Translations under genes and position numbers: made by a program
Assembly (NCBI GenBank): GCA_030526225.1
Contig: JAUNDF010000040.1
Location: 1 to 19,153 of the forward strand
Length of the DNA stretch: 19,153 nucleotides
From: Clostridia bacterium
Lineage (GTDB): Bacteria; Bacillota; Clostridia; Christensenellales; Aristaeellaceae
Direction: 5' to 3'
Notes under the pieces: model-generated
The model's database searches: none
Told to the model about the DNA's origin: nothing
The model's input: the letters and a program-made list of their open reading frames with translations, nothing else
Shown: positions 1,231 through 18,631 of the stretch, one piece after another
Layout: every line of letters begins with the position of its first letter
How positions within the stretch are numbered: position 1 is the first letter of the stretch

Positions 1231-1742
1231 ATGTACAGTATGAAAAGAAGCCGGCCATGACCTTTATCGGCTACCATACGGAAATCAGGCCGGATGAGGG
1301 CTATCAGAAGTGTCCCGAATTCTGGGACAAGGAATACAGCGCCAAATATGCCAGACTGTGGCAGACCATGCAGCCGGAAACGGGCGTGGAAAAGGCGATT
1401 CTGGAAAACGGCATCGGCATGTATGCCATCTGTGCAGAGGCCGAAAACGGTTTCAGCTACTGGATTGCCGGGCTGTATCAGGGCGGTGATGTGCCGGAAG
1501 GGCTGGAGCTGTTTTCCTTCCCGGAAAGCCAGTGGGCCGTGTTTACCGCCAAAGGTCCCATACCCGGCTCCCTGCAGACATTGAATACCGCCGTGTGGCA
1601 GGAATGGTTCCCCGGTGAGGGACAAAAGTACTGCGCCAACGGCAGCGCCACGCTGGAGGTTTATTCCGCCGGCAATCCCCAGTCCCCGGAATATGAATGC
1701 GGCATTTGGGTGCCTGTGCGGGGGCTGGACTGTACCGACTAA
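1227..1742 (+). CDS. GyrI-like / AraC-effector-binding (Cass2-type) small-molecule-binding protein
   Basis: The 171-aa product has a GyrI-like layout (KKPAMTFIGYHTEI..., ...WAVFTAKGPIPGSLQTLNTAVWQEWFP...LEVY). The RBS AAAGGAGA is at 1213-1220. The ATG overlaps the TetR stop (ATGA), indicating translational coupling. The stop is TAA. Confidence 0.75.
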   Translation: MNVQYEKKPAMTFIGYHTEIRPDEGYQKCPEFWDKEYSAKYARLWQTMQPETGVEKAILENGIGMYAICAEAENGFSYWIAGLYQGGDVPEGLELFSFPESQWAVFTAKGPIPGSLQTLNTAVWQEWFPGEGQKYCANGSATLEVYSAGNPQSPEYECGIWVPVRGLDCTD

Positions 1743-1758
1743 CAGGAGATGGAGAACA

Positions 1759-1983
1759 ATGAAAACACTGCGCAGCCTTTCCAATAAGTCCTTTGTCATT
1801 GCTGCTGCGGCGCTGGTGACCGGTGCCGGGACCCATGGCTATCGGCTGCATCCGGAGAACACGGCCCATTATCAGCTGGGTGTCACCGTGGGCGTTGCGG
1901 CGGTCGTGGTGTTCGCCGTGTTTCTGTACGCCGGAATCGTGTGCAGGATTCTGGGCAGCAAGAACTGGAAAAAGGGAATGTGA
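1759..1983 (+). CDS. Small hypothetical membrane protein (74 aa), third gene of the TetR operon
   Basis: ATG at 1759 sits 16 nt after the previous stop, with GGAGATGGAG upstream. There are two hydrophobic segments (FVIAAAALVTGAG and GVTVGVAAVVVFAVFLYAGIV). I recognise no family. Confidence 0.45.
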   Translation: MKTLRSLSNKSFVIAAAALVTGAGTHGYRLHPENTAHYQLGVTVGVAAVVVFAVFLYAGIVCRILGSKNWKKGM

Positions 1984-2069
1984 ACGGAGCGGGGATTCGC
2001 TTAAGCAATCTGCCGCGCTTATCTGAAGAACAGTATATATCCGATGATGCGCAAATCATCAGACAAACC

Positions 2070-2125
2070 AAAACCCCCGCCATCCAATCCGGAATTCAAT
2101 CCGGTGGACGGCGGGGGCGATTTTT
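2070..2125. terminator. Bidirectional intrinsic terminator shared by the convergent small ORF (+) and the glycosyltransferase (-)
   Basis: A long imperfect stem CCCCCGCCATCC...GGACGGCGGGGG (2074-2117) contains an inner CCGGA/TCCGG pairing. It is flanked by an A-run (2070-2073) and a T-run (2121-2125). Confidence 0.6.
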
Positions 2126-3407
2126 ATTCTGCCTGATTGACTGAATCGGCGGAAATCACATGCTCGGTTTTGTCCCAGTTCTGCTGCTGGCGGTACTTGG
2201 CCAGACCGACGAACTGGCAGGCGATGGAGATGGCCATGTTGATGACAAGGCTGTAGAGCATCAGGGGCAGCTTCTTCAGGCTGAGGCTGTGGTCATCCAT
2301 CTTTTCGGCCACATAGAACAGCACCAGATAGCTGTAGATGAACAGCAGGATGCCCGGCAGGATGTCAAACACGCCGGTGGGTCTTGCCTGAAAGCCAAAG
2401 GCGGGGACGAACATCAGCAGCGCCTGGAAGATGGCCTGCAGCACCACAAAGATGTAGGTGAACATGCCCCACATGTAGGAGAAGGTGCCGAGGAATTCCT
2501 TCACGCTCAGCCTGCCGGAGAACAGCGCCTTGAACACCTTGCCGGTGTTGCGGAAGCAAACGAAGGTGTAGCCCTGACTCCAGCGGGTCTTCTGCCGGTA
2601 GGAGGCCATGGCCTTGGTGGGCTTTTCGTCATACACCCGGGTGAAGTGGTTCCACAGGATGCGCTTGCCGGCCAGCGTGGCTTCCACCTGAATCTCAAAG
2701 TCCTCCGTCAGGGACATGGTGGTCCAGCCGCCGCGGTTGTACAGGTATTGGGTGGAGATGGCAAAGCCGGTGCCGCCGATGCAGTTGTTGATGCCCAGAC
2801 GGTAGCGGGCCAGCTGGGTGAAGCGGTTGACAACCACATAGCTGGTGTAGTAGAACCACGCGATGGGGCCCTTCTTGTTCTTGCAGCCCAGATAGCACTG
2901 AATCAGCTCGGGGTGGTTCTTGTCCTGATACTGGCTGTTGACCTCCCGCAGCATGTTGCTGTCCATCACGTTGTCGGCGTCGAAAATCATCATCAGGTCA
3001 TACTTGTTCTGATAATCGCCGATGGCATCCAGCGCCTTTTTCAGGGCGATGGGCTTGCCGGTGGGGCTGTCGGGGGTTTCCTTCCGGGTTTCAATCACGC
3101 CGGCGCCAAGGCTTCTGGCAATCTCGGCGGTGTTGTCGGTGCAGTTATCGGCGATGATGAAGAAATCGTACAGCTCCTTGGGGTAATCCATGGCCTTCAG
3201 GCTGTGGATAATGTCCTTGATGACGGCGGCCTCGTTGTGGGCGGGCACAAGAATCAGGAACTTTGCCTCGGGATCATGCTCGGCGTAGTCACGCTTGGCG
3301 CGTTTGAAGCCGAACAGATTCAGGAACAGCTGATATAACATGGCAAACATCATCCAGACGGAAATGATGCCGGACAGCACCTGGATGATGATTTTCACTA
3401 TCTCCAT
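2124..3407 (-). CDS. Family 2 glycosyltransferase, processive beta-glycan-synthase type (PgaC/IcaA/cellulose-synthase-like), integral membrane
   Basis: The 427-aa product has an N-terminal TM helix, a GT-A core (LVPAHNEAAVI, IIADNCTDNT, MIFDADN, LTEDFE), a Q-x-x-R-W motif (YRQKTRWSQG) and C-terminal TM helices. ATG at 3407 is preceded by GAGGAGGATT (3411-3420). The ORF-track start at 3467 has no RBS. The stop is TAA. Confidence 0.85.
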   Translation of the reverse strand: MEIVKIIIQVLSGIISVWMMFAMLYQLFLNLFGFKRAKRDYAEHDPEAKFLILVPAHNEAAVIKDIIHSLKAMDYPKELYDFFIIADNCTDNTAEIARSLGAGVIETRKETPDSPTGKPIALKKALDAIGDYQNKYDLMMIFDADNVMDSNMLREVNSQYQDKNHPELIQCYLGCKNKKGPIAWFYYTSYVVVNRFTQLARYRLGINNCIGGTGFAISTQYLYNRGGWTTMSLTEDFEIQVEATLAGKRILWNHFTRVYDEKPTKAMASYRQKTRWSQGYTFVCFRNTGKVFKALFSGRLSVKEFLGTFSYMWGMFTYIFVVLQAIFQALLMFVPAFGFQARPTGVFDILPGILLFIYSYLVLFYVAEKMDDHSLSLKKLPLMLYSLVINMAISIACQFVGLAKYRQQQNWDKTEHVISADSVNQAE

Positions 3408-3469
3408 TAAAATCCTCCTCTTGGCATAACAACAGCCGGGCATAAACAGCCCGACTGGCATACACATCC

Positions 3470-3498
3470 ATTTAACAACATAAAGAATGGATTGTCAA
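3470..3498 (-). promoter_or_regulatory. Candidate promoter for the glycosyltransferase gene
   Basis: On the minus strand: TTGACA (3498-3493), a 17-nt spacer, then TTAAAT (3475-3470). Confidence 0.35.
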
Positions 3499-3598
3499 GC
3501 ATTTAATAGGAAAAGACAGGGGAGAGCAGCGCTGCCGGAGACAAAACAGGGTATTTTGCGCCGCTTGAAAAAATGTGAAAAAAACTTCAAAAAGGGGG

Positions 3599-3626
3599 TT
3601 GACAATCTTTGAGAATAGAGTACAAT
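3599..3626 (+). promoter_or_regulatory. Candidate promoter for the C69 dipeptidase gene
   Basis: TTGACA at 3599-3604, a 16-nt spacer, and TACAAT at 3621-3626, about 60 nt upstream of the start codon. Confidence 0.5.
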
Positions 3627-3688
3627 ATGAATCGTACTTCAACACACTAAAGCAATAAACCACTAAATTGTTAAAGGAGATTATGAAC

Positions 3689-5275
3689 ATGAACGTATGG
3701 AAGAAACTGGCCGCTGCCGCATTATCCTGCTCCCTGCTGTTTGGCTCTGTGGGTGCTTCCGCCTGTACCACCATTTACGTGGGCGGCAACCTGACCGAAG
3801 AAGGTACGCCCTTTGTGGCCCGCACATAGGACTATGGCTCTGATATGAACAAGCTGTGGTTCATTTCCGAATCCGGTGCCTTCAAGCAGGGCGACAGCTG
3901 GCGCGGCTGCCCTGCCTACGGTGAATTCGAGTGGACCTTCCGCAAGGACAGCTACCGCTTCACCTACTTCACCAACGACATTTTCAACGGTGCCTGCCCC
4001 GAGTGCGGCGAGGAAAACCCCACCCACTTCTCTTATACCGAGTTCGGCACCAATGAAAAGGGCGTTTCCGTATCCGCCACGGAATCCATCTCCGGCAACG
4101 AGGCGGTCAAGGCCATTGACCCCAACGTGATGACCAAGGTGGACGGCAAGGTGGGCATCGAGGAGACGGACATCCCCACCATCATTCTGGCGGAGGCCGG
4201 TAGCGCTCGTGAGGGCGTGGAGCTGCTGGGCGAAATTTACACTGACTACGGCGCATTCTTCGATTCCGGCCTGTTCATCTGTGACCAGAACGAGACCTGG
4301 TACATCGAAAACTGCTCCGGCACCCAGTACATCGCCCTGAAGCTGAACAACGACCTGCTCTTCATGGAGCCCAACATTTCCGTCATTGGCCTGATTGACC
4401 TGAACGACACCGAAAACGTCATCGCCTCCCCGAAGCTGATTGAGGTTGCACAGCAGGCCGGCACCTTCGTGGGTGATGCGGACAAGAACCTGATTGACTA
4501 CCGCGCCTCCTATGCCAACCTTGGCACCGAGGATGCTCCCCGCGTGGGCGCACCCCGTATGGTGGATGGTCTGGCTTACCTGAATCCCGCCGCTGCCGCC
4601 ACGGAAAGCGAGCTGGCTGCCGACAACACCCTGTTCACCATCAGCAACGTGAAGGACGGCGCCATCGTGCCCCTGTACACCAACATCACCGCTGACCGCA
4701 CCCTCACCAAGAACGATGTGTTCGACTTCTACAAGCTGGACAGCGTGGGCAAGCCCAGCAATCAGGAGATTGAAATCTTCCAGCTCTTTGCCGATCGTCC
4801 TGTGGAAACCGGCACCGTTGGCTGGGTTGGCGTGGGCAACATGGCCTACAACGTGTTCGTTCCCTATTATCCGCTGCTGATGAACGACATCTATGAGGGT
4901 TATCAGGTTTCCACCCCTGTGGTCACCAAAACGCCCATCGCCGATGGCAAGCCCGACGGCTTTGTTACCTATGCCAAGAACCGCAGAACCGGCGATGAAT
5001 ACTATGTGGCTTATCCCGAAAACTGGCGCGATTCCTACTACTTCACCTTTGAGGGACTGGGCGGCTCCATCTTGTATGCAGAGCAGCTGACCGGCGCTCC
5101 CTTCGCCGAGGAAGACAAGCAAACCGTGAAGGAAACCATCGCGGCCCTGCAGAATGAAATCAACGCCGGCTTTGAGACCATCGATCCCAAGGACACCGAT
5201 GCCTTCGGCAAGGAAATGGCCGCCAAGGCACAGCAGACCGCACTGGAGCTGATTGACCGGCTGATTATCAAGTAA
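3689..5275 (+). CDS. Secreted C69-family (PepD-like, Ntn-hydrolase) dipeptidase interrupted by one in-frame TAG at 3827-3829. It is a pseudogene under code 11 unless TAG is read through.
   Basis: RBS AAAGGAGA is at 3673-3680 and ATG at 3689 (ATG at 3683 is also possible). The signal peptide MNVWKKLAAAALSCSLLFGSVGASA is followed by CTTIYVGG (the N-terminal nucleophile Cys of C69), then ...TPFVART-TAG-DYGSD. The same frame then runs into the 476-aa ORF-track entry 3845-5275 (GTNEKGVSVSATES, ILAEAGSAREGVELLGE, ICDQNETWYIENCSG). The stop is TAA. Confidence 0.85.
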
Positions 5276-5295
5276 AACAGAAAGCCAAAAAGAAA

Positions 5296-5332
5296 CCCCG
5301 CGGTACCGGGCTACGGTATCGCGGGGCTTTTG
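5296..5332. terminator. Bidirectional intrinsic terminator between the convergent dipeptidase (+) and mgtC-like (-) genes
   Basis: Stem CCCCGCGGTACCG (5296-5308) / CGGTATCGCGGGG (5314-5326) with one G:U pair. It is preceded by AAAAAGAAA and followed by CTTTTG. Confidence 0.7.
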
Positions 5333-5363
5333 CGTGAATGATAGATGATTGTTGTCAGGTGCC

Positions 5364-6056
5364 TTATGTGTTTCTCGTCCGCACGCCCTGAATGTTGGGG
5401 TGCTCGGAAAGGGCGTTGACGATGTCGGTGTAGGCAAGGTTGCCGGGGAGGGTCAGGGTGTAGATGTTGGTGTACAGGTTCAGCTTGCCCTTGTTTTCCA
5501 CATGGAAGTCGATGTCCAGCACCTTGATGCCCTTTTCCTGAAAAAAGGTGTTGATGAAGGACAGCGTTTCCACCCGGTGGATAAACTTGACCTCCACGCT
5601 TTTGATGGAGTTCACATGCACCACCCGCTGCAGGGCCATCAGGGTGATGAGCACCACACAGCAGCCGGCCAAAGCAATCATATAAAACCCAAGGCCCACG
5701 GCGATGCCCAGACAGCCCACGCACCACAGGGATGCGGCGGTGGTCAGGCCGCCGATTTTCTTTTGGCTGACGAAAATGGTGCCTGCACCCAAAAAGCCGA
5801 TGCCGCTGATGACCTGGGCAATCATGCGGCCCATGCTGACGCCGATGCCGCTGTCGGGGTTGGTCATGTTGGCCTTGGTCACGGCCTATACGATGCAGCA
5901 CTCCACAATGGCAATCATGGCTGCACCCACGCAAACAAGCACATGGGTGCGCATGCCGGCAGGGCGGTTTTTGTATTCGCGCTCAATGCCGATGGCACAG
6001 CCCAGCACCACCGCAAGCACCAGACGAAGAAGAATTTCCCACCATGTCATGGTCAT
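5364..6056 (-). CDS. mgtC: MgtC/SapB family membrane protein interrupted by one in-frame TAG (complement of 5886-5888). It is a pseudogene under code 11 unless TAG is read through.
   Basis: Minus-strand translation from 6056 gives MTMTWWEILLRLVLAVVLGCAIGIEREYKNRPAGMRTHVLVCVGAAMIAIVECCIV-TAG-AVTKANMTNPDSGIGVSMGRMIAQVISGIGFLGAGTIF..., in the same frame as ORF-track entry 5364-5882. The GIERE...AGMRTH and AQVISGIGFLGAG motifs are MgtC hallmarks, and a C-terminal ACT-like soluble domain follows. The start could instead be ATG at 6050, since GGTGGG lies upstream. The stop is TAA. Confidence 0.85.
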
Positions 6057-6094
6057 CCCACCAATCGAAATAAGATTTCCGCATCAGAGGGGGA

Positions 6095-6778
6095 TCAGTC
6101 ATCGGTTTCCACCACGGAGAAGCCCTTGCTGCGGAGCAAATCCACAATGTCTGCATCCAGATGCATGCAGTAGAAGTCCCTGCGCTTTTCAGCCGGAATC
6201 ACGGCCTCCAGCGTTTCATAGTGGCAATGGGAGGGGGAGTGATGGCTGGCTGTATCGTGATAGATGTTCTGAATCTGGCCGGTCAGGAAGGCATCGCGGA
6301 TATCCGCAGGCAATTCGGCGGAGTCGCCGCTGAAATAGAAGCAATCGTCCCCCGCAGAAATCACATAGCCGAAGGTCTTCATGTCATCTGCATGGCGCAC
6401 CGGCACGGGGCGGGCGGTGACGGGGCAATCAGCAGGCAGGGCGGGCAGATAATCGTAGAAGGATTTTGAAATGCCCATGATGCTCAGCAGCTGCACCACC
6501 GTATCCACCGGATGCACCACCTTCACATGCAGGCCCAGCACGATGCTGGTGTAGGACATAAACGAGGCCAGGGAGCCTGCGTGGTCGGCATGCAGATGGG
6601 TCAGGAGGACGTAGATTTGACGGTACTTCTTCAGGTCGATGGTGCGGACCACCTTCTCAAAGGAGCTTTCGCCGAAATCAAGGAAATACAGATCGTTGTC
6701 GTATTCAAACCATGCGTTTGTATTGCCGAAGGCCGGATAGAAGGCCGCGCCTTTGCCGAGGAAATGCAGCTTCATCAC
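6095..6778 (-). CDS. MBL-fold metallo-hydrolase (beta-lactamase-like superfamily)
   Basis: The 227-aa product carries the HxHxDH motif (LLTHLHADHAGS) and downstream His/Asp ligands. The start is GTG at 6778 or ATG at 6775, after AAAGGAG. The stop is TGA, 38 nt upstream of the mgtC-like start, so it is in the same operon. Confidence 0.8.
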   Translation of the reverse strand: MMKLHFLGKGAAFYPAFGNTNAWFEYDNDLYFLDFGESSFEKVVRTIDLKKYRQIYVLLTHLHADHAGSLASFMSYTSIVLGLHVKVVHPVDTVVQLLSIMGISKSFYDYLPALPADCPVTARPVPVRHADDMKTFGYVISAGDDCFYFSGDSAELPADIRDAFLTGQIQNIYHDTASHHSPSHCHYETLEAVIPAEKRRDFYCMHLDADIVDLLRSKGFSVVETDD

Positions 6779-6864
6779 AGTATCACTCCTTTACACCGGC
6801 AGACACGAAGCTGTTCATAAACTGCTTTTGCATCACAAGGAATGCAAGCCATTACCTTTTTCAT
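6775..6864 (-). CDS. Unannotated 29-aa Cys-rich small ORF (MKKVMACIPCDAKAVYEQLRVCRCKGVIL), first cistron of the MBL/MgtC operon
   Basis: It has the best SD in the region: AAGGAGG (complement of 6873-6879), 8 nt before ATG at 6864. Its TGA stop (6777-6775) overlaps the ATG/GTG start of the MBL gene. It lies about 26 nt downstream of a consensus promoter. At under 60 aa it is too short for the ORF track. Confidence 0.4.
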   Translation of the reverse strand: MKKVMACIPCDAKAVYEQLRVCRCKGVIL

Positions 6865-6896
6865 AGAGGTAACCTCCTTGCTTATTTTGTACCTTG

Positions 6897-6925
6897 ATTG
6901 TATCATGCGAAATGAATCGTGTCAA
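6897..6925 (-). promoter_or_regulatory. Near-consensus promoter for the small-ORF/MBL/mgtC operon
   Basis: On the minus strand: TTGACA (6925-6920), a 17-nt spacer, then TACAAT (6902-6897). Confidence 0.6.
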
Positions 6926-7080
6926 TAAAGTTTGCGTAAATTATTTGTGTAAAATGACCGTAAAGTGCGTAAATAATGATAAAACAGGTTGGCAAATTGC
7001 CAGATAATGGATGTTTGCCTGATTTGGAGCCGGACTTCGGATAAAACGAGCCGCCGCATATGGCATTTTTCCAGCTTTTG

Positions 7081-7089
7081 TGGTACAAT
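7081..7089 (+). promoter_or_regulatory. Candidate extended -10 element (TGGTACAAT) for the LacI-fusion gene
   Basis: A TGnTACAAT element lies 57 nt upstream of ATG at 7146. No good -35 is present. Confidence 0.3.
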
Positions 7090-7145
7090 CAAGTATATAG
7101 ATTATCTTTCAGGCATATATACAGCCATCATACAGAGGTGAAAAC

Positions 7146-9338
7146 ATGGTCACCATTAAAGATATCGCAAAAGCGGCAGGGGTTGCACAGGGAACGGTTT
7201 CCAATGTGCTCAACGGCCGCGGCAATGTGAGCAGTGAAAAAATCAAGCACGTGCTGTAGGTCAGCGAGCGGCTTGGCTATATTCCCAACGAGCGCGCCAA
7301 AATGCTCCGCAAGGGCCGCAGCCGCCTTTTGGGCGTGATTCTGCCCAATCTGCAGTCCAAGCGGTATGCGGTTTTTCTATCCAGCTTCAAAAGCTGTGCG
7401 GAGGAAAATAATTATAATGTGCGCATTTACTGGCCCCGCCGCAACAGCCGGGAGGAAGAGGACGCATTGATTCAGCAGGCCCGCAGCGATATGGTGGAGG
7501 GTCTTGCTCTGTTTTCCGGCTTTGCAAAGGAGCGGGAGCAGGGCGAAGCGGGGCCGATGAAAATCGTGTATGTGGAGCGCAAGCCGTCCTTTGCGGCGGA
7601 TTACATCGGCTTTGATTTTGCCCGCGCCGGGGAAGAAATGGCCCGGCAGATTCTGCAGGATGGTCACCGGCGGGTGTATGTCATTACCGAGTCCCTGAAC
7701 TGCTCCCACACGGAAGCGTTTTACGGCAGCCTGACGGGGGTGCTTTCCGCCGGGGGCTGCAAGGTATCCGCCATCCAGACAGACCAGCGCCGGCAGTCGC
7801 AGAACATCCTGCGTGGGCTGGACCATATCAGGCCCGATGCCGTGGTCTGCTCCTGCCTTGATTTTGCCCAGGATGCGCAGAACATTCTGGCAACCTTTTT
7901 CCAGCGGGAAATGCCGGCTGTCTATACCCTGTCCCACATCTTCACCCTGCCGGAGGGACATTTCCGCAAATATGAACTGAACTACGGCCAGCTGGGCAAC
8001 AAGACCGCCCGGCAATTAATCCGGCAGATTGAGCATCAGGAGGAAGAGCTGCCTCCCGCAGAGCAGCTGGTGGAAAACACAGGCTTCCGCTGCTGGGCGC
8101 CCATGCCTGTCAGTCACCCATCCACCCGCCCCTTGAACGTACTGACGCTGGATAACCCCGCTGCCCTTGCCACCCGGCAGATGGCGCATTTGTATACCAG
8201 CTACACCGGCGTGCCGGTGAATGTCACGATTTCCTCCTATGATGAAATCTACGAAATTTTCAGCAATCTGGACAACGATTCCACCTTCGATGTGCTGCGG
8301 CTGGATACCACATGGCTCAACTGGTTTGCGGAAAAGCTGCTGCTGCCGCTGGACGAAATTGACCCGACCATCCGCACGGTGCTGGATGATTTTCTGCCCG
8401 GCACACCGGAGCATTATTCCTACGTCAACGGAAAGCTGTATGCGCTGCCCTACAGCCCATCCACCCAGCTGATGTTTTACAGGACCGACCTGTTTTCATC
8501 CCCCATCTGCAAGCGGACCTTCCAATAGAAATACCATACAGAGCTGACTGTGCCCCAGACCTTTGATGAGTTCAACCGAATTGCGGCCTTCTTCACCCGG
8601 GCCAACAATCCGGATTCTCCGGTGGAATACGGGGCAACGCTGACACTGGGCTCCACGGGCGTGGCGGGCAGTGAATTCCTCAGCCGCATTTTCTCTGTGC
8701 AGGAGGATTTGTTTGATGACCATGGCCTGATTCATCTGGACAGCCCTGTGGCCATCCGCGCCCTTGAGCAGATGATCAGCCTGCTGCCCTGCACCGAGCC
8801 GGACCGCTGCAAGTGGTGGACCGACACAGCGGAGGCCTTCGCCGGCGGCAATGTGGCCATGACCATCCTGTACAACAACTTCACCGCGCCGCTGCTCAGC
8901 TCCCATTCCCGTGTGCCGGATAAAATCGGCTACGCCATGGTCCCCGGCAACCGCCCGATTCTGGGCGGCGGCTCTCTGGGCGTGTCGAAGTATTCCAAGC
9001 AGCCGGAGCAGGCCATGAATCTGGTGCGCTGGTTCTGCAGTGAGCCGGTGTCCTCTGCGGCGGCCATGCTGGGCGGCACCTCCTCGTGCAGCAAATCCTA
9101 CAACAATTACGAAATCATCAACAACTATCCGTGGCTGAGGCTGGCCAAGAAGTGCTTCCATTCCGCCACGGGCCGCCGGCTGCCGGAAACCGTGGCAGCG
9201 CCCTTCAACGAGCGGCGGTTCCTGGGCATCATCGGACGCGCCGTGAAGAGTGCCTGCAGCGGCGCCCTGTCCCCGGAGGAGGCGCTGCTCCACGCCCAAA
9301 AGCAGTATGAGGACCAGTTCGGCGAGTTCATCAAATGA
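7146..9338 (+). CDS. LacI-family HTH + PBP1 sugar-binding core + family-1 extracellular-solute-binding-protein-like domain, in one ~730-codon frame interrupted by two in-frame TAGs (7257-7259 and 8526-8528)
   Basis: RBS AGAGGTGA is followed by ATG at 7146. The sequence reads [71 protein letters not shown]... (LacI HTH and hinge). It continues through ORF 7302-8528 to ...[44 protein letters not shown]..., joining ORF 8550-9338. All three pieces are in frame 3. No signal peptide or TM helix is present. The stop is TGA followed by TAA. Confidence 0.75.
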
Positions 9339-9353
9339 TAAAATAACGATAAC

Positions 9354-9403
9354 AAAAAGCAGCCCGTGCCTGACCGGTTTTGGTCACAGCACGGGCTGTT
9401 TTG
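9354..9403. terminator. Bidirectional intrinsic terminator between the convergent LacI-fusion (+) and 901-aa membrane protein (-) genes
   Basis: AAAAA, then GCAGCCCGTGC (9359-9369), an inner TGACC/GGTCA hairpin, GCACGGGCTG (9389-9398), then TTTT. Confidence 0.7.
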
Positions 9404-9419
9404 ATGCGTTGAGGTGGGA

Positions 9420-12125
9420 TTACTTCTTACCGGAATCCCCGCGGAGGAAGGAAACCAGCATGACCACATAGCCTGCCACATACAGTGCGCCGCCCAGCAT
9501 CAGGCTGACCTTCAGCGCCAGATGACCCAGCGCGTACAGAATCAGCGCGATGATAACGGGCAGGTTGATGGCCCTGCGGGAAATGCGGCTGCAGCGGAAG
9601 GCCAGCTGCAGGGCAGGGGTCAGGGCGAGGCCCTTGACAATCAGCACCGCCGGGGTCTTTGTCTTGGGGAAGGAGAACCAGATGGGCAGTGCGAACAGCA
9701 CGAAGAAGAAGGCCGTCAGCAGGGTGGTGCGGATGAAGGTCACCGCGGCATTGGTGCGGGAAACATCGCGGCGCTCATCGCTGCGGATGACCATCACGGC
9801 AAACAGTGCAGTCAGGGGAGAGATGAACCGCAGATCGTCAATGGTGCCGGGGAGGCCCAGCATCATGCCCACAAAGATGGACAGGCTGCACTGGAACAGC
9901 ATCAGCCAGGACATGCGCTGCACTTTGCCGCGGTACTCGCTGTGTTGAACGCCCAGTAGACATTCAATGGCCAGCAGTGCGTGGAGCAGCATGCCGCACA
10001 CCAGATAAAGCACCGTGCCGAGGCTGAGATTATCCGGCGCCTTTGCCAGCAGCCTTGCGATGTAGGGCAGCACATTGTGCACAAGGCCCATGCGGCTGAT
10101 GAGCGCAGTGAGGAAGGTGAGGGAGAAATACGCGGACAGGCCCGCGGCAATCCACATGCTGATGCGGCCTGCGCGGCTGGGCTCCACCGGTGCGGAGCGG
10201 TGCTTCTTTTTCGTGAGCAGGGAAGAGATGACGATGTAGATGATGATAATCTGGCTGGAAATGATGTAGGGCCAGAAGATGGTCAGGCTGGAGATGATAG
10301 CCTTCAGCTCCTCGCTGTCTGCCTGACCGGAGGCTTCGTGCAGCACCATGTCGGACAGGGTGCCGGGCTTATCCTGAAAGTGCAGCTGGCGGCCGGTGAT
10401 GTCCGTCATGGAGACGGTGGCTATGCTGTCCGTCTTGCCCTGACGAAGCTGCAGGGTGATTTCTTCCCCTTCGGCAAGGGTGACAGGGTCGGAAATGTAC
10501 ATGTGCCGCACATTGGTTTCCAGCGGAACAACGCCCACAGCGGCCTGTGTGTCGGTGGCCTTGTTGGCCTTCAGCTTCAGGATATACCGTCTGCCGGCTT
10601 GTGCGGGCAGGCGCAGATACTGTGCCTGCCGAAGGGCAAAGGCGGCCATGCTGTCATCCAGCGGAACGGCTTCTTCGCCATCCTGCATGCGGGAGACGGA
10701 AACGGTCACATCGCCCATAACAACAATCTGCACATATTCGCGGTGAGCGTACAGCTCCTCCGGCGGGATGTCGGACAGCAGCCAGCTGAGGTACACCTTG
10801 GGCAGATGCTCGCCCACCACATCCAGACCGCCGGAGAGCACATTGACCCACACGTTGCTGCTCTGGGGCACATCGGGCAGGGCTTCCTCCTTGACCAGAC
10901 CCAGCTCGCTCATCTTTTTCAGATCCAGCAGCACAACGGCTTTCAGGGGCGTCCAGACAGACTGGTTGCTCTCGATGATGTCCACCAGCAGCGCCTTGGA
11001 CAGGATGCCCAGATCGTGGAGGGTTTCCTCCCATGTTTCGGTGTGGGTGGCTTCGTGGGCATCGGCTACGAACAGGAAGGTCATCAGCTTGTTGGCAAAG
11101 CTCTTTTCGATGCCCATGGCGGAAACAGCCGCATCCTGCACGCGCTGGACGAAGGTTTGTGCATCGGGGGCATAGCCGGCGGATATGGCCAGCACACGGC
11201 CCAGCAGCCAGTTGCGCTCCACCAGAGAGCGGAAGGGCTCGCCCACGCCTGCCATCCTGTCATACACGGCCTCGGCTTTGGAAACCAGCTCCTCGTAGTT
11301 GTCGTTGGTTTCACGGGCGGGGAGGAACAAAGTGGTGCCGTGGCGGGTGTAGCCCCAGTCCTGCAGGGGGACATGGGGGACGGCATCAAAGCTGTTGCAG
11401 ATGCAGTACAGCTGGGGATAGGCAACGGGCGTGGTGGTGGTATTGGGGGTGGCGAAGGAATAGCCGAACACATCCGTGTCGATAAACCGGCCGGACTGCA
11501 GCAGCAGATGACCCAGCAGGTTGCTCACCGCGCCGGAGCGGCTGAAGCCGCTGGTCCAGACCTTGATGCGCTTGCCGGGGTAGTGGTCTTCGATGTAATG
11601 AATCAGCCGGGTATAGACCTGCTGGGCGGAGCTGAGGAAGCCGTCGTGGTTGATGTATTCGCCCACGGACACATTGCTGGCCCATTCCGTTTTGTAGCCC
11701 TGACCGCATACGGGCACGGCCACAAGGATGTACTCGTCGCCGTTTTCATCCCGCATGGGGCGGGCGGCGATGACGTTGGAAATGGTATCAGGGCCGGGGT
11801 TTTCGTGGTAGCCGTAGGCCTGATAGTTTTCAAAGCCAAGGTCGGTGAAGAACTTCTGAATGATGCGGTCGGATTCCTTCAGCGGCACCAGCGTATCCCG
11901 GAAAGCCGCACAGGTCATCATCAGCGACAATCTGGCGATGGTGTGGTTGTAGGACTGGGACGGCGCGTGGAACTCCGACAGGGACAAATCCACCGGATAA
12001 TCGAAATCGATATAGGTCTTCGGGGAGAGGAAGGTGATGTGCACATCGGTGGTCTCTGCCAGCGCCGGCAGCTGACACAGCAGCATCACGCAGCAGAGCA
12101 GCAGGGCACAGATTCGTTTGAGCAT
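9420..12125 (-). CDS. 901-aa exported alpha/beta-hydrolase (class-3-lipase-like) domain fused to a C-terminal polytopic membrane domain
   Basis: RBS AGGAGAG lies 6 nt before ATG at 12125. The signal peptide is MLKRICALLLCCVMLLCQLPALA|ETT. A nucleophile-elbow-like KVWTSGFSRSGAVSNLLGH lies at about residues 188-206, with a lipase_3-like context. An unassigned region of about 350 aa follows, then about 290 aa with about 9 hydrophobic helices. The stop is TAA. The fold assignment is from motif memory only. Confidence 0.6.
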   Translation of the reverse strand: MLKRICALLLCCVMLLCQLPALAETTDVHITFLSPKTYIDFDYPVDLSLSEFHAPSQSYNHTIARLSLMMTCAAFRDTLVPLKESDRIIQKFFTDLGFENYQAYGYHENPGPDTISNVIAARPMRDENGDEYILVAVPVCGQGYKTEWASNVSVGEYINHDGFLSSAQQVYTRLIHYIEDHYPGKRIKVWTSGFSRSGAVSNLLGHLLLQSGRFIDTDVFGYSFATPNTTTTPVAYPQLYCICNSFDAVPHVPLQDWGYTRHGTTLFLPARETNDNYEELVSKAEAVYDRMAGVGEPFRSLVERNWLLGRVLAISAGYAPDAQTFVQRVQDAAVSAMGIEKSFANKLMTFLFVADAHEATHTETWEETLHDLGILSKALLVDIIESNQSVWTPLKAVVLLDLKKMSELGLVKEEALPDVPQSSNVWVNVLSGGLDVVGEHLPKVYLSWLLSDIPPEELYAHREYVQIVVMGDVTVSVSRMQDGEEAVPLDDSMAAFALRQAQYLRLPAQAGRRYILKLKANKATDTQAAVGVVPLETNVRHMYISDPVTLAEGEEITLQLRQGKTDSIATVSMTDITGRQLHFQDKPGTLSDMVLHEASGQADSEELKAIISSLTIFWPYIISSQIIIIYIVISSLLTKKKHRSAPVEPSRAGRISMWIAAGLSAYFSLTFLTALISRMGLVHNVLPYIARLLAKAPDNLSLGTVLYLVCGMLLHALLAIECLLGVQHSEYRGKVQRMSWLMLFQCSLSIFVGMMLGLPGTIDDLRFISPLTALFAVMVIRSDERRDVSRTNAAVTFIRTTLLTAFFFVLFALPIWFSFPKTKTPAVLIVKGLALTPALQLAFRCSRISRRAINLPVIIALILYALGHLALKVSLMLGGALYVAGYVVMLVSFLRGDSGKK

Positions 12126-12167
12126 AGGTGTCTCTCCTGTGATGATTGGGATGGGCTGATGTTCAGC

Positions 12168-12710
12168 TTACAGCCGGTACTCCATGTACGCTTTGCCGTC
12201 CATGTCCTTCCAGGTGAACAGGCCGTTTTCCAGCACCATGTAGCTGTGAGCGGAGCCTTCCTTGGGGATGGAGACAGAGCCGGGGTTGAGGTAGCGCACG
12301 CCGTTTTCCTCGGTGTTGGCGGGGATGTGGGTGTGGCCGTGGAGCAGAATGTCACCCTTGTGCAGGGGCGGCAGCTGCTTGAGGTTGTAATTGTGGCCGT
12401 GGGTGGCAAAAATCATCTTTTCACCCTCGCAGATGATGGCGTACTCGGTCAGCACGGGGAAGTCCAGCACCATCTGGTCAACCTCGGTGTCGCAGTTGCC
12501 GCGCACGCACAGGATATCATCCTTCAGGGGATTGAGCATGGCAATCACCTGCTTGGGGGCGTATTCCTCGGGCAGGTCGTTGCGGGGGCCGTGGTAGAGC
12601 ACATCGCCCAGCAGCAGCAGGCGGTCGGCACCCTCGCGGGCATAGGCATCCAGCATGGCGCGGCACCATTTGGCGGAGCCGTGAATATCGGAAGCAATCA
12701 GCCATTTCAT
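12168..12710 (-). CDS. yfcE: YfcE-type (MJ0936 family) metallophosphoesterase / phosphodiesterase
   Basis: The 180-aa product is collinear with E. coli YfcE as I recall it: ASDIHGS, LLLGDVLYHGPRN.LPE.YAP, VRGNCD.EVDQM, THGH, GHTH and NPGSVSIPK. The stop is TAA. Confidence 0.85.
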   Translation of the reverse strand: MKWLIASDIHGSAKWCRAMLDAYAREGADRLLLLGDVLYHGPRNDLPEEYAPKQVIAMLNPLKDDILCVRGNCDTEVDQMVLDFPVLTEYAIICEGEKMIFATHGHNYNLKQLPPLHKGDILLHGHTHIPANTEENGVRYLNPGSVSIPKEGSAHSYMVLENGLFTWKDMDGKAYMEYRL

Positions 12711-12934
12711 TTCTGCTCATTCTCCTTTTCAGCCTTGGCAGCAGCGCGCTCCTGCAGGTAATTAATCAGAATCGAGGTCAAGCCGAAGAGCAGGAACAGG
12801 CTCATGGGGGTGATGACCCATGCCAGATTCTCCGCCAGCGTGCGCTGAACCATCAGCACAATCACAGCCACCACAAAAACCACCATGCAGGCCAGCGCCA
12901 GCAGGGCCAGAAGCTTTTTTACCTTGTTCGTCAT
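12707..12934 (-). CDS. Small hypothetical membrane protein (about 75 aa, 2 TM)
   Basis: AAAGGAGA lies 6 nt before ATG at 12934 (ATG at 12940 abuts the SD). There are two hydrophobic helices and a charged tail, AAAKAEKENEQK. The TGA stop overlaps the yfcE ATG (ATGA). Confidence 0.5.
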   Translation of the reverse strand: MTNKVKKLLALLALACMVVFVVAVIVLMVQRTLAENLAWVITPMSLFLLFGLTSILINYLQERAAAKAEKENEQK

Positions 12935-12974
12935 ATGCATTCTCCTTTTATATCCTGTTGATTGGTATGCGTGA

Positions 12975-13706
12975 TTATATCACCAGTCCGCCGTTGACGC
13001 CCAGCACCTGCCCGGTGATGAAGGCGGCTTTTTCGTCTGCCAGATACAGCACCGCATCAGCCACTTCGCTTGGCTGACCGGCCCGCTCCAGGGGCGTTTC
13101 CTCATTGATGGCAGCAATATCCTATGGGGACAGATGGGCGTTCATCTCGGTCATAATCAGCCCGGGGGATACGCAGTTGACACGGATGCCGCTGGGGCCC
13201 AGCTCCTTGGCCAGCGCCTTGGTCAGGCCGATGACCGCCGCCTTGGCCGCGGAATAGGCCGCCTCGCAGGAGGCACCCGTTTCGCCCCACATGGAGGCAA
13301 TGTTGATGATGCTGCCGCTCTTTTGAGAAACCATGGCGGGGATGGCGGCCCGGCAGGTGAGGAACACGCCCTTCACATCGGTGTCAAACAGCCGGTCCCA
13401 TTCCTGCACGGTCATGTCCTGCAATAGCCCTATGTGGGCGATGCCGGCATTGTTCACCACCGCATCGATGCGGCGGCATGTGCGGAGGATTTCCGCCATG
13501 GCCGCGTTCACCTGCTGCTCATCGGTGATATCCACCTGCATGCCCCGGGCGGTATAGCCCTGCGCTGCCATGGCGCGGGTGATTTCCTCTGCGGCGGCAG
13601 CGGCACTGCGGTACCAGAACACGGTGGTGTATCCGGCGCGGCAGAAGGCTTCCGTACAGGCACGGCCGATGCCGCGGGTGCCGCCGGTAATCAATGCCAC
13701 CTTCAT
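12975..13706 (-). CDS. Short-chain dehydrogenase/reductase (FabG-like) interrupted by one in-frame TAG (complement of 13122-13124). It is a pseudogene under code 11 unless TAG is read through.
   Basis: The product has TGGTRGIGRA (Rossmann), NNAG and a YSAAK catalytic motif. It reads ...GLIMTEMNAHLSP-TAG-DIAAINEETPLERAGQPSEVADAVLYLADEKAAFITGQVLGVNGGLVI, then TAA (12975-12977). I translated the 49 codons after the TAG by hand. They are the canonical SDR C-terminus, in the same frame. Confidence 0.85.
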
Positions 13707-14464: not shown

Positions 14465-14511
14465 GAATGATGAAAAGAATCCCTGCTGAAAGAGAAACGG
14501 AGCATACAATT

Positions 14512-15195
14512 ATGTACAAATATTTGCTGGCGGATAACGACAACACCCTGATGGACTTTACTCTGGCAGAAGCCCGGGCCCTGCGGGAGGCCATGACGAT
14601 TTATCACGTGCAGGATGATGACGAAACCGTAGCCGCCTATCACCGCATCAACGATGCCCAGTGGAAGGCGCTGGAGCGCGGCGAGACCACGCAGGATAAG
14701 CTGAAGGTGGACCGGTTCGTGCTGTTCCTGGAGGCCATCGGCCGCAAGGATGTGGACGGTGCCGCCATGAGCGAATGCTATGAGGAGTGCCTGAGCCATC
14801 ATGCAGAAATGATGGAGGGCGCACAGGCTTTTCTGGAGCAGGTGCATGACCGGGGCGTGAAAATCGCGCTGGTGTCCAACGGCATCAGCCGGATTCAGCG
14901 GGGGCGTTTGAGCTGCTGCAGCTTTGCCCATCTGCTGGACGCGGTGATTATCTCTTCCGAAATCGGCGTCAACAAGCCCGATCCCCGGGTGGTGGAAGCG
15001 GCACTGGCGCAGCTGAAGTGCGAGGACAAACAGCAGGCGGTGCTGCTGGGCGACAGCCTGACCGCGGATGTGGGCGCCGCCCGAAACGCCGGTGTGGACA
15101 GCATCTGGCTGAGCCTGAAGGGCGGCACCAGCGACCTGCCCACCTACACCGTAACCGATTTGAAGCAAGCCGCCGGTATCATCATCGGCGAGTAA
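14512..15195 (+). CDS. HAD-IA hydrolase, YjjG/YfnB-like (nucleotidase-type)
   Basis: GGAG lies 9 nt before ATG at 14512. The product begins MYKYLLADNDNTLMDF (a DxDxT motif) and also has VSNG, NKPDP and GDSLTADVGAARNAGVDSIW motifs. The stop is TAA. Confidence 0.75.
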   Translation: MYKYLLADNDNTLMDFTLAEARALREAMTIYHVQDDDETVAAYHRINDAQWKALERGETTQDKLKVDRFVLFLEAIGRKDVDGAAMSECYEECLSHHAEMMEGAQAFLEQVHDRGVKIALVSNGISRIQRGRLSCCSFAHLLDAVIISSEIGVNKPDPRVVEAALAQLKCEDKQQAVLLGDSLTADVGAARNAGVDSIWLSLKGGTSDLPTYTVTDLKQAAGIIIGE

Positions 15196-15208
15196 GGAGG
15201 ATGCAATC

Positions 15209-15736
15209 ATGAATGAAGTACTCGACGCCATCAAAACACGCCGCAGTGTGAAGGCCTACAAGCCCGACATGGTGCCGCAGGAGCTGATTGATCAGGTCAT
15301 CGAGGCCGGCACCTGGGCCCCCACGGGCATGAACCGTCAGGCACCGGTGATTCTGGCCGTGACCGACAAGGTAATCCGGGACCGGCTCAGCGACATGAAC
15401 CGCCGCGTGATGGGCGCCCCCGAGGGCATGGACCCCTTCTACGGCGCACCGGTGGTGCTGGTGGTGCTGGCCGACAGGGATGCGGCGCTGACATGGCAGT
15501 ATGACGGCAGTCTGGTGCTGGGCAACATGCTGCTGGCTGCTCATGCGCTGGGTCTTGGCGGCTGCTGGATTCACCGCGCCAAGGAGGAGTTTGAGACAGA
15601 GGAGGGCAAGGCCATTCTGGAAAAGGCGGGCCTTACCGGCAATCTGGTGGGCATCGGTCACTGCGTGATTGGCTACCCCAAGGACGGCCTGCCCACACCC
15701 AAGCCCCGCAAGGACGGCTGGGTGGCAAAGCTGTAA
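15209..15736 (+). CDS. Nitroreductase family protein (FMN-dependent)
   Basis: AAGGAGGA lies 7 nt before the ATG. The signatures are AIKTRRSVKAYK, APTGMNRQ and LAAHALGLGGCW. The start is 13 nt after the previous stop. The stop is TAA. Confidence 0.85.
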   Translation: MNEVLDAIKTRRSVKAYKPDMVPQELIDQVIEAGTWAPTGMNRQAPVILAVTDKVIRDRLSDMNRRVMGAPEGMDPFYGAPVVLVVLADRDAALTWQYDGSLVLGNMLLAAHALGLGGCWIHRAKEEFETEEGKAILEKAGLTGNLVGIGHCVIGYPKDGLPTPKPRKDGWVAKL

Positions 15737-15799
15737 GCGCAAAGGGCGTTTCATCCTGTGCTTGTGAAGAATAAATCAGAAAATCTTCCCTGCAGGCAG

Positions 15800-15828
15800 T
15801 AGACAAACGCCTGCAAACATGGTATAAT
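15800..15828 (+). promoter_or_regulatory. Candidate rpsO promoter
   Basis: TAGACA at 15800-15805, a 17-nt spacer, and TATAAT at 15823-15828 preceded by TGG (extended -10-like). Confidence 0.5.
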
Positions 15829-15929
15829 TTTACGCGGTTTCAGAACCGTTTACGCAGGTGACCGATCACTCCGACGGCATGCTTCGTACACGGCGATTGG
15901 CCTAAATGTTTTAATGGAGGGAATTCCCA

Positions 15930-16184
15930 ATGACCAAGGCAGAAATCATCAAGAACTTTGCTACCCATGAAGGCGACACCGGTTCTCCCGAGGTGCAGGT
16001 CGCTCTGCTGACCGAGCGCATCAACCACCTGAACGAGCACCTGAAGTCCAACCGCAACGACCATCACTCCAACCGTGGTCTGCTGCTGATGGTTGGCCGT
16101 CGCCGCGGTCTGCTGGAGTACCTGAAGAAGACCGACATCGAGCGCTATCGTGCCCTGATTGCCAAGCTGAACCTGCGTAAGTAA
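15930..16184 (+). CDS. rpsO: 30S ribosomal protein S15
   Basis: The 84-aa product has [37 protein letters not shown]-type S15 sequence. GGAGGG lies upstream. The stop is TAA. Confidence 0.95.
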
Positions 16185-16264: not shown

Positions 16265-16447
16265 GTGCGCGTTCGGCGGCTTTTATACGGATGCCGCACA
16301 GACAATGCGGAAGGGAAGCTGCCCTTTCGCGGCATGGTCGCTTTTCGGATGTTATCCCTTGAAAATCCCGTCTTTCGGGGGTTTTCATATGATAGCATCC
16401 GGGAGCGAGTGACATTCATCCTTTGGCGGATGAAAAAGGAGATAAAC
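16265..16447 (+). promoter_or_regulatory. Structured pnp 5' leader
   Basis: Several hairpins are visible by eye: ATGCCGC (16291-16297) / GCGGCAT (16329-16335); CCCG-TCTTT-CGGGGGTTTT (16367-16385); and TTCATCC (16415-16421) / GGATGAA (16428-16434), directly abutting the SD AAGGAG (16436-16441). Confidence 0.35.
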
Positions 16448-18604
16448 ATGGATTACAAGTCTTTTACAATGGACCTGGCAGGCCGCAACCTGACCCTGGA
16501 GTTCGGTAAGTATTGCGAGCAGGCCAACGGCAGCGTTTGGGTTCACCTGGGCGATACCGTGGTGATGGTCAACGCCACCATGGCCCCCGCTCCCCGCACC
16601 GGTGTTGACTTCTTCCCTCTTGCAGTAGACGTGGAAGAAAAGCAGTATTCTGTGGGCAAGATCCCCGGCGGCTTCATCAAGCGTGAAGGCCGTCCCAGCG
16701 ACAAGGCTACCCTGACCTGCCGCCTGATCGACCGCCCCCTGCGCCCCCTGTTCAACAAGGGCATGCGCAATGACGTGCAGGTGGTTGTAACCATCCTGTC
16801 CGTTGAGCAGGATGTTCCCCCGGAAATCCCCGCCATGATCGGTTCTTCCATCGCGCTGGCTGTTTCCGATATTCCGTGGAACGGCCCCACCGGCGCTGTG
16901 CTGGTTGGCCGCGTGAACGGCGAGTTCGTCATCAACCCCGATGAGGAGCAGCGCAAGGAATCCGACCTGAGCCTGTATGTTGCCGGTACCGAGGAAGCCA
17001 TCATGATGGTTGAGGCCGGTGCAAACGAGCTGAGCGAGGATACCATGCTGGATGCCATCCTCTTCGGCCATGAATACATCAAGAAGCTGGTTGCCTTCCA
17101 GAAGCAGATTGTTGCTGAAATCGGCAAGGCCAAGGTGGAAGTTCCCCTGAACGTGACCGGCGACGATGTGAAGGCTGCCGTTCGCGAGTTTGCCTATGAC
17201 AAGTGCGTATGGGTATTCGAGACCTTCGACCGCTCCGAGCGTCAGGCCCGTGAGGCTCAGGTGAAGGAAGAGACCATGACCGCTCTGGCTGAACAGTTCC
17301 CCGAGCGCGAGGCCGAAATCGCCGATGCACTGTACTACCTCAACAAGGAAGTCATGCGCAAGAAGATTCTGGACGAGGGCATCCGCCCCGACGGCCGCAA
17401 GGTCACCGAGGTTCGCCCCATCTGGTGCGAGGTTGGCGTGCTGCCCCGCGTACACGGCTCCGCCATTTTCACCCGCGGCCAGACCCAGGCCCTGACCGTA
17501 ACCACCCTGGGCGCCACTGCCGAGGGTCAGGTGCTGGACGGCCTGAGCAGCGAAACCTTCAAGCGTTATATTCACCAGTACAACATGCCGCCCTATGCCA
17601 CCGGTGAAGCCGGCCGCATGAAGAGCCCCGGCCGCCGTGAAATCGGCCACGGCGCTCTGGCTGAGCGTGCTCTGCTGCCCGTGATCCCCACCGAGGAAGA
17701 GTTCCCCTATGCATACCGTCTGGTCAGCGAAATCCTGTCCTCCAACGGTTCTTCCTCCATGGCCTCCGTTTGCGGCTCCACCCTGTCCCTGATGGATGCC
17801 GGTGTTCCGATTCATGCCCCCGTTGCCGGTGTGGCCATGGGTCTGATTACCAACACCGAAACCAATCAGCTGGCTGTGCTGACCGACATTCAGGGTCTGG
17901 AAGACTTCCTGGGCGACATGGACTTCAAGGTAGCCGGCACCATGAACGGCATCACTGCCCTGCAGATGGACATCAAGATTGCCGGCATCAACCGTGAAAT
18001 CCTGTCCAAGGCTCTGTCTCAGGCACTGGAAGGCCGCCTGCACATCCTGGGCATCATGCTGGAGACTCTGGGTCAGCCCCGTGAGGAGCTGTCTCCCTAC
18101 GCTCCCAAGATTGTCCGCTTCACCATCAACCCCGAAAAGATTCGTGAGGTGATTGGACCCGGCGGCAAGATGATCAACAAGATTATCGCCGAGACCGGCG
18201 TGAAGATTGACATCGAGGATGATGGCCGCGTGTTCATCTCCACCCCCGATGCCGATGCTGCCGCCAAGGCCCGCCGCATCATCGAGGGCATTGCCAAGGA
18301 TATCGAAGTGGGCGATGTGTTCACCGGCAAGGTTGTCCGCATCATGAACTTCGGTGCCTTCGTTGAGCTGGCCCCCGGCAAGGATGGCATGATTCACATC
18401 TCCAAGCTGGACAACAAGCGCGTGGAGAAGGTGGAAGATGTGGTGAACATCGGTGATGAGATTGAAGTCAAGGTCAACGAGATTGACGCTCAGGGCCGCA
18501 TCAACCTCATCCGCAACGACATTGTTTATGACAATCTCGCTGCACGCCGTCCCGAAGGACAGCAGATTCGCACCCGTCCTCCCCGCCGTGACGGCCGTCA
18601 GTAA
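16448..18604 (+). CDS. pnp: Polyribonucleotide nucleotidyltransferase (PNPase)
   Basis: The 718-aa product has two RNase PH domains, then KH ([15 protein letters not shown]) and S1 ([20 protein letters not shown]) domains. AAAAAGGAG lies before ATG at 16448. The ORF-track start at 16211 is an upstream open-frame artefact. The stop is TAA. Confidence 0.95.
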
Positions 18605-18631
18605 TCCCTGACGCAAACCCTATGACCAAAT

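Follow-up and report, generated by a model that had tools for sequence, protein, structure and literature searches.

Translation of the amber codon UAG as glutamate (Glu) is proposed here for the organism represented by a single stretch of DNA of 19,153 bp, referred to below as the window, in which five TAG codons stand in frame within four otherwise intact genes. An exact-sequence look-up identified the window as an entire contig of the NCBI metagenome-assembled genome (MAG) 'Clostridia bacterium'. Comparison of these genes with their homologs makes the window a strong candidate for UAG being read as Glu, be it by reassignment of the codon or by an efficient suppressor of the tRNA-Glu(CUA) type, and the probability of this reading is put at roughly 0.65. 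The five codons and their in-frame contexts are as follows.

3827-3829, forward strand: TAG of the C69 dipeptidase gene, context ACA TAG GAC
5886-5888, reverse strand: TAG of the MgtC gene, in a variable loop, context GTA TAG GCC
7257-7259, forward strand: TAG in the LacI-type helix-turn-helix (HTH) part of a fusion gene, context CTG TAG GTC
8526-8528, forward strand: TAG in the SBP part of the same fusion gene, context CAA TAG AAA
13122-13124, reverse strand: TAG of the SDR gene, context CCA TAG GAT

The four genes that carry them, read through TAG, are these.

3689-5275, forward strand: C69 family dipeptidase, 528 codons, TAG at codon 47; Pfam PF03577 (Peptidase_C69) at residues 25-410, E 3.6e-48
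5364-6056, reverse strand: MgtC family membrane protein, 230 codons, TAG at codon 57; Pfam PF02308 at residues 12-145, E 1.2e-38
7146-9338, forward strand: LacI-HTH/periplasmic-binding/SBP_bac_8 fusion, 730 codons, TAGs at codons 38 and 461; Pfam LacI at residues 3-48 and SBP_bac_8 at residues 346-656
12975-13706, reverse strand: FabG-like SDR, 243 codons, TAG at codon 195; Pfam adh_short_C2 at residues 11-241, E 6e-66

The 16 gene models of the window are free of frameshifts and of TAA or TGA in frame, over ~5,400 codons. A first-pass annotation of this DNA had already described this absence and had placed all five TAGs correctly in position, strand and frame; its statement that family-typical sequence continues on both sides of each TAG agrees with Pfam, where every one of the five codons is spanned by one domain match. 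Once TAG is read through, all four proteins reach the length typical of their families, and the canonical C-terminus of the SDR (...ITGQVLGVNGGLVI), to which attention had been drawn before, does continue in frame after its TAG. The dipeptidase is of particular interest in this regard, as its signal peptide and the conserved cysteine of the 'SACTT' motif are encoded upstream of TAG and the remainder of the domain downstream, so that function of the enzyme requires readthrough. The mature enzyme begins with this cysteine (...SACTTIYVG motif), which is presumably, from what is generally known of the family, its N-terminal nucleophile. Among the peptides that readthrough of the TAGs would yield is ...PFVARTEDYGSDMNK... 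The number of codons that follow the C69 TAG is 481, rather than the 476 initially reported, the latter figure corresponding to an ATG-started open reading frame (ORF) at 3845-5275. At NCBI the first 46 codons of this gene have a record of their own (MDO4484144.1, 'hypothetical protein Q4C54_06855').

The identity of the residue at each TAG was examined by alignment with homologous proteins. In the C69 family the TAG column lies within the motif FVARTEDYGS and is occupied by Glu in 120 of 120 homologs (61-85% identity), the closest of which (P0001) is full-length and 85% identical, while the two nearest relatives for which DNA was fetched (L001 and L002, neither syntenic with the window) have ACG GAG GAT where the window has ACA TAG GAC. 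At the SBP TAG (8526) every one of 119 homologs of the fusion protein has Glu; it had been proposed earlier that two of the sites match a conserved Glu. At the LacI-HTH TAG (7257) the nearest homologs have Glu, with Asp in 63 and Glu in 42 of 120 homologs overall. For the SDR, whose homologs were taken from a search with a concatenated query of SDR, MgtC, M16 and the 5' gene that yielded long fusion proteins only, Glu is present in 13 of the 17 homologs that are at least 45% identical, and also in all three printed PDB alignments with FabG (two distinct proteins), which run through TAG. The MgtC column is variable, Glu being the commonest of its residues (18 of 132 aligned), which makes this site compatible with Glu and not diagnostic of it; a search of the PDB returned no MgtC structure, and the C69 structures found there align from residue 116 onward only, beyond the TAG at codon 47. 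A conserved Gln, Lys, Tyr or Trp was found at none of the five sites, and this is to be seen against codon counts in these genes of ~190 for GAG, 167 for CAG and 203 for AAG, with TAY codons likewise as common and all of them one step away from TAG. The initial guess of a GAG or CAG neighbour can accordingly be sharpened to Glu, given that the alignments back a GAG origin at four sites and a conserved Gln at none, with MgtC variable, and the residue specified by the TAGs would most probably be Glu.

The presence of these codons in the DNA is supported by Logan contigs, which were assembled separately from run SRR24915835 and were found by way of the nitroreductase, P0126, the 46-aa C69 piece and the 167-aa MgtC piece. 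They are 100% identical to the window over a total of 9.8 kb and reproduce four of the five TAGs (3827, 5886, 7257 and 8526) base for base.

Window 1296-4323: Logan contig L085, holding TAG 3827
Window 4991-5967: Logan contig L086, holding TAG 5886
Window 5940-10246: Logan contig L004, holding TAGs 7257 and 8526
Window 14493-16046: Logan contig L003

Since separately assembled contigs carry them, these four TAGs were neither planted nor introduced by binning or polishing, and among the k-mers of a public read set they are at least in the majority. An exact look-up with the SDR N-fragment recovered no Logan contig over the fifth site, at 13122; exact-protein look-ups with the 901-aa protein, YfcE, the C69 C-fragment, GT2 and PNPase were likewise without a record. 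Among the collections searched the organism was seen in this one public run only, and no mention of SRR24915835 was found in the literature.

The mutational pattern within the genes provides a further line of evidence. Of all the single-base paths by which a nonsense codon can arise in these genes, 12.7% lead from GAG to TAG, and the share is 33.8% among those that involve G:C>T:A changes only, so that five out of five would arise with P = 3e-5 and P = 4e-3, respectively, if all five sites are counted as derived from GAG, an origin that the alignments support for four of them, the MgtC site being variable. A stronger test than this nonsense spectrum is the lack of collateral change. Across 325 columns that are invariant among homologs (137 in C69, 74 in LacI-SBP, 112 in PNPase and 2 in MgtC) the window departs at two TAGs only: in C69, with 137 columns invariant in 120 homologs, the sole difference is the TAG, and in LacI-SBP, with 74 such columns, it is the TAG at codon 461. 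Any neutral process yielding five nonsense changes would be expected to bring with it a 10- to 24-fold larger number of missense changes, which corresponds to 3.4 to 14.5 missense changes at the invariant columns and to a probability of finding none that ranges, depending on the model, from 0.03 to <1e-6. Decay, a mutator and noisy sequence are all made less likely by this pattern, and the window appears to behave like a well-assembled genome under purifying selection that tolerates the change from GAG to TAG alone, as would be expected if TAG were synonymous with GAG.

The sequence around the TAGs shows a bias of its own. The preceding codon ends in A at four of the five sites (ACA, GTA, CAA and CCA, at 3824-3826, 5889-5891, 8523-8525 and 13125-13127), although codons ending in A are rare in these genes (7.4%) and only 12 of 191 GAG codons have an A before them, an excess whose significance varies with the null model, with P = 1.4e-4 relative to codon usage and P = 1.6e-3 once C and T are disallowed as the base before TAG. 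The base after TAG is G at four sites, as had been pointed out, and a purine at all five. A purine after UAG is said, in work attributed to Bossi 1983 and to Miller and Albertini 1983, to favour suppression in E. coli, and the combination of A before and purine after may reflect selection for a decoding context.

Among the alternatives, the one that survives best, although it is unlikely, is that four accessory genes were hit by independent GAG-to-TAG (G:C>T:A) mutations and are young pseudogenes, with an oxidative-damage or mutY-type mutator lineage as one example of the source. This would be in keeping with the fact that all five changes belong to one transversion class, that all four genes are plausibly dispensable and that NCBI treats the N-terminal piece of C69 as a 46-aa hypothetical protein; moreover, A[G>T]A is a favoured context of 8-oxoguanine mutagenesis, and A precedes TAG at four of five sites. 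Yet an oxidative hotspot of this kind would equally predict GAA>TAA after A, which is never seen (0 of 13 A-preceded GAA codons, as compared with 4 of 16 A-preceded sites of the GAG type that are now TAG; Fisher P = 0.11), and a G:C>T:A process in general should also have produced GAA>TAA, TAC>TAA and TGC>TGA, of which there is none. The point made at the outset, that random decay would mix nonsense types and indels, is well taken: the hallmark of pseudogenes is a mixture of nonsense types and frameshifts together with relaxed conservation, and what is found in the window is TAG only, no indels and the retention of invariant columns. The five nonsense changes would imply some 50 to 120 missense changes in the window, against 0 of 325 invariant columns altered in that way, and five knock-outs in 17 genes, if extrapolated to the genome, would mean that about one third of all genes are disabled.

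It is less likely still that UAG is read through without being a dedicated Glu codon, whether by near-cognate tRNAs or suppressors inserting Gln, Lys or Tyr, by pyrrolysine, or by readthrough programmed by an RNA element. Near-cognate readthrough in RF1-deleted E. coli (RF1 and RF2 denoting release factors 1 and 2) inserts Gln, Tyr and Lys, TAG-recoded phages use Gln, pyrrolysine is to our knowledge the only natural bacterial decoding of UAG, and at the MgtC and LacI sites several residues could be accommodated. Against this stand the two sites that are invariantly Glu in ~120 homologs each and the lack of any site at a conserved Gln, Lys or Tyr, even though CAG and AAG are as common as GAG and equally one step from TAG. 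With respect to pyrrolysine, the genes concerned (C69, MgtC, LacI-SBP and SDR) are not methylamine methyltransferases, and no pyl genes (pylTSBCD) were found in the 19-kb window. As for RNA elements, the 120-nt segments that follow the TAGs are no more stably folded than shuffled sequences (z -0.07 to -1.12) and, when aligned, reveal no common motif, so that context-programmed recoding of the SECIS or PYLIS kind is not supported.

Least probable of all is an artefact of sequencing, library preparation or assembly by which a G in these GAG codons came to be written as T. G>T oxidative artefacts had been raised in the first-pass annotation, the organism's Logan contigs are short (1 to 4 kb, suggesting modest coverage) and both assemblies were probably built on the same reads. 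Against an artefact, two different assemblers concur base for base across 9.8 kb with four TAGs included, no frameshift is present, the invariant columns of PNPase, C69 and LacI-SBP are otherwise unaltered, random G>T errors would not strike solely the first base of Glu codons, and GAGG remains abundant (144 on both strands), which excludes a deterministic motif miscall. Motif-linked miscalling was rejected on the same ground, NGAGG motifs being still abundant.

The use of stop codons in the window has to be viewed in the context of its relatives, which were collected by a PNPase-based scan of metagenome contigs (80 loci). Of the 17 genes in the window with a readable 3' end, 12 end in TAA, 5 in TGA and none in TAG; an earlier tally of 19 ends had the same number of TAA and no TAG, and differed in its total and in the number of TGA (7). 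In the close set of relatives (L005-L014, L023 and L030; PNPase at least 74% identical; ~150 kb) TAA ends 58 genes, TGA 22 and TAG a single one (n = 81), and this clade is therefore nearly without TAG terminators, whereas more distant loci use TAG normally (15 of 120 and 23 of 122 gene ends). No pair of coding ORFs joined by TAG was found in the ~150 kb of the close relatives, and their PNPase and M16 homologs are without in-frame stops. TAA dominates in the clade although its G+C content is 52-62%, and the trinucleotide TAG is under-represented 3 to 6 times. The window does not contain the tetranucleotide CTAG at all (0 observed and 71 expected from base composition); this was considered as a special feature and rejected, CTAG being absent or nearly so in all related loci, which amounts to a clade-wide avoidance. 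The RF1 status of this TAG-poor clade would be of interest in its own right. When the species was sought among GTDB representative genomes, neither the 901-aa protein nor an exact 30-mer spanning TAG 8526 gave a match.

Every test that was run favours a translated TAG over decay or artefact, as the original proposal of recoding or suppression had it, and one of the arguments put forward for that proposal turned out to be weak: the lack of TAG at gene ends had been taken as a signature of recoding, and relatives without in-frame TAG show practically the same (1 of 81). Several considerations weigh against the translation of UAG as Glu, and this is the first of them, for a feature that is the background of the clade is without evidential weight for this genome. 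The prior for such a code is low, because no natural bacterial UAG-to-Glu code has been found in the literature. Only 19 kb are covered, within which pnp and rpsO, two housekeeping genes rich in Glu codons, have no TAG, and ARAGORN detected no tRNA genes in the 19,153 bp. The MgtC site is uninformative as to the amino acid, and the excess of A before TAG loses its significance when compared with all TAG trinucleotides in the window (P = 0.13). Finally, the Logan contigs probably derive from the same reads as the MAG, and a systematic error at the level of reads is thus formally possible.

With these reservations, a route by which UAG could have come to specify Glu may be outlined. The lineage would have begun in a clade where TAG was almost unused as a terminator, a setting in which the codon can be given up as a stop at hardly any cost and which is a precondition for codon capture. 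A duplicated tRNA-Glu(CUC) would then need a single change, C36A, to acquire the anticodon CUA, which is one base away, and RF1 would have been lost, weakened, rendered ineffective or out-competed, the established specificity of RF2 covering both UAA and UGA. New TAGs would subsequently arise from GAG as effectively synonymous and neutral changes, and the four TAG genes would yield full-length, functional proteins. The data show that the TAGs are real and stand at Glu positions, that the genes are otherwise intact and that TAG stops are scarce in the clade, whereas the tRNA, the state of RF1, a complete reassignment as opposed to efficient suppression and an extension of the effect to the whole genome are inferred. 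That UAG has been fully reassigned from stop to Glu along the whole chromosome, with a tRNA-Glu(CUA) and without functional RF1, is a tentative suggestion for which the odds are somewhat below even. The same holds for the view of such a full reassignment as an early stage of codon capture, with ~1.4% of Glu codons being TAG; in the window, 5 of the 360 codons of Glu type are TAG (1.4%). In the related loci 11 tRNAs were found, none with the anticodon CUA, and no release-factor gene turned up in the window or among the fetched loci (1.15 Mb), both results being uninformative.

A number of known systems resemble the proposed one in part. The UAR-to-Glu codes of peritrich ciliates and Blastocrithidia are NCBI tables 30 and 31. 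They share with the window a stop codon starting with UA that is read as Glu and that appears in frame at Glu positions of conserved proteins; they are, however, eukaryotic nuclear codes in which UAA and UAG changed together, whereas the window is bacterial and the change concerns TAG alone, TAA ending 12 of 17 genes and never occurring in frame. For Blastocrithidia, the assignment of UAR to Glu is reported in PMC12153298. Laboratory amber suppression and RF1-free E. coli (sup strains, C321.deltaA) are similar in that UAG is read by a tRNA whose anticodon is CUA, the base after the codon influences suppression and RF1 becomes dispensable once TAG terminators are absent, but those strains were engineered or selected, and in the uncultured organism of the window such a state would have become fixed in nature and would insert Glu. 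TAG-recoded gut phages (Lak megaphages, crAss-like phages and others) reportedly carry suppressor tRNAs and read TAG as Gln. Like the window they have in-frame TAGs in intact genes and come from gut-type metagenomes; in their case the recoding resides on the phage genome and concerns Gln, while the window is a chromosome contig with rpsO-pnp and metabolic genes and the residue is Glu. In bacteria, UGA has been reassigned to Trp (table 4) and to Gly (table 25), the matching release factor being usually lost. These cases and the proposed one would have in common a genome-wide change from stop to sense, after which the freed codon reappears at the positions of one amino acid, and they differ in that UGA and RF2 are involved in the former and UAG and RF1 in the latter.

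No report of a bacterial UAG-to-Glu code was found in the literature up to mid-2026. According to Shulgina and Eddy 2021 (PMC8629427), the stop-codon changes known in bacteria at that time all concern UGA and RF2 and none UAG and RF1, and later papers add further UGA cases only (Eggerthellaceae, PMC13462651; gTranslate preprint), with sense-codon candidates among the later work (10.64898/2026.04.02.715157). Genome-wide use of UAG for pyrrolysine has been described in some archaea, as far as can be taken from the citation of Kivenson et al. 2025 in the gTranslate preprint. Pyrrolysine decoding is comparable to the proposed case in that a prokaryote reads UAG as an amino acid and, in archaea, in that little coding density is lost and the change is easily missed; on the other hand, it affects methylamine methyltransferases or non-conserved sites and needs pylTSBCD, whereas in the window TAG replaces an invariant Glu in unrelated enzyme families. 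The present case behaves like a change of a stop codon to a sense codon. It shares its amino acid with the eukaryotic codes and its codon with the phages and the users of pyrrolysine, and it is a member of none of these groups.

With a full reassignment of UAG to Glu, this organism would be the first bacterium whose natural code assigns the amber codon to a canonical amino acid. If UAG does specify Glu in it, this would imply that the RF1-dependent stop codon can be captured in bacteria too. TAG-poor relatives next to a lineage with only a few percent of new TAG codons would then offer a live example of the codon-capture route. Standard annotation pipelines would miscall such genes, the 46-aa 'hypothetical protein' of C69 being an instance, and, since coding density barely falls when UAG is read as pyrrolysine, as reported by the authors of gTranslate, detectors of alternative codes that are based on density would miss the change. 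From a biotechnological perspective, a natural combination of tRNA and synthetase for the reading of UAG would become available, and possibly a chassis that is naturally free of RF1. In a host of this kind, translation of phage genes terminated by TAG would run past their ends, and some gut phages are themselves TAG-recoded.

The window as a whole, which has a G+C content of ~57% and encodes the proteins MDO4484141.1-MDO4484155.1 (locus tag prefix Q4C54), is of chromosome type, with rpsO, pnp and an M16 peptidase next to one another and metabolic genes on the same contig. Its other genes are listed below.

3-449: FMN-binding-type C-terminus
Between the gene at 3-449 and C69: TetR, a GyrI-like protein and a GT2 glycosyltransferase
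Between MgtC and the LacI-HTH/periplasmic-binding/SBP fusion: an MBL-fold hydrolase
9420-12125, reverse strand: lipase-domain membrane protein of 901 aa
Between the 901-aa protein and the SDR: a YfcE-like phosphoesterase and a small membrane protein
After the SDR: two HAD hydrolases, a nitroreductase, rpsO and pnp, followed by the start of the M16 peptidase

Real frames were told apart from antisense ORFs by a codon-usage score trained on the window's own genes, which separated the two cleanly. An all-against-all tblastn for stops inside alignments had proved unusable, as the antisense and off-frame ORFs of GC-rich genomes align with one another, and the codon-usage score was used instead. Opposite real genes there are antisense ORFs of great length, the longest of 926 codons, at 9981-12761 (forward strand), 16385-18616 (reverse strand) and 3722-5437 (reverse strand); they have negative scores in the codon model and are not genes. 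ORFs of this kind are typical of genomes rich in G+C at third codon positions and would mislead both gene calling by ORF length and all-against-all tblastn.

The 901-aa protein combines an N-terminal class-3 lipase domain (a weak Pfam match, E 3.7e-6) with a long, multi-pass membrane C-terminus, and a pattern scan of GTDB representative genomes returned no relative of it. The joining of LacI-HTH, periplasmic-binding and SBP_bac_8 domains is an unusual architecture for a regulator, which is nevertheless that of a large family with a conserved length of ~730 aa. Apart from the window's own fragment, the best 120 matches to the fusion protein are all 718-787 aa long, and the labelled members of the family come from Clostridia and Lachnospiraceae-type genomes and MAGs.

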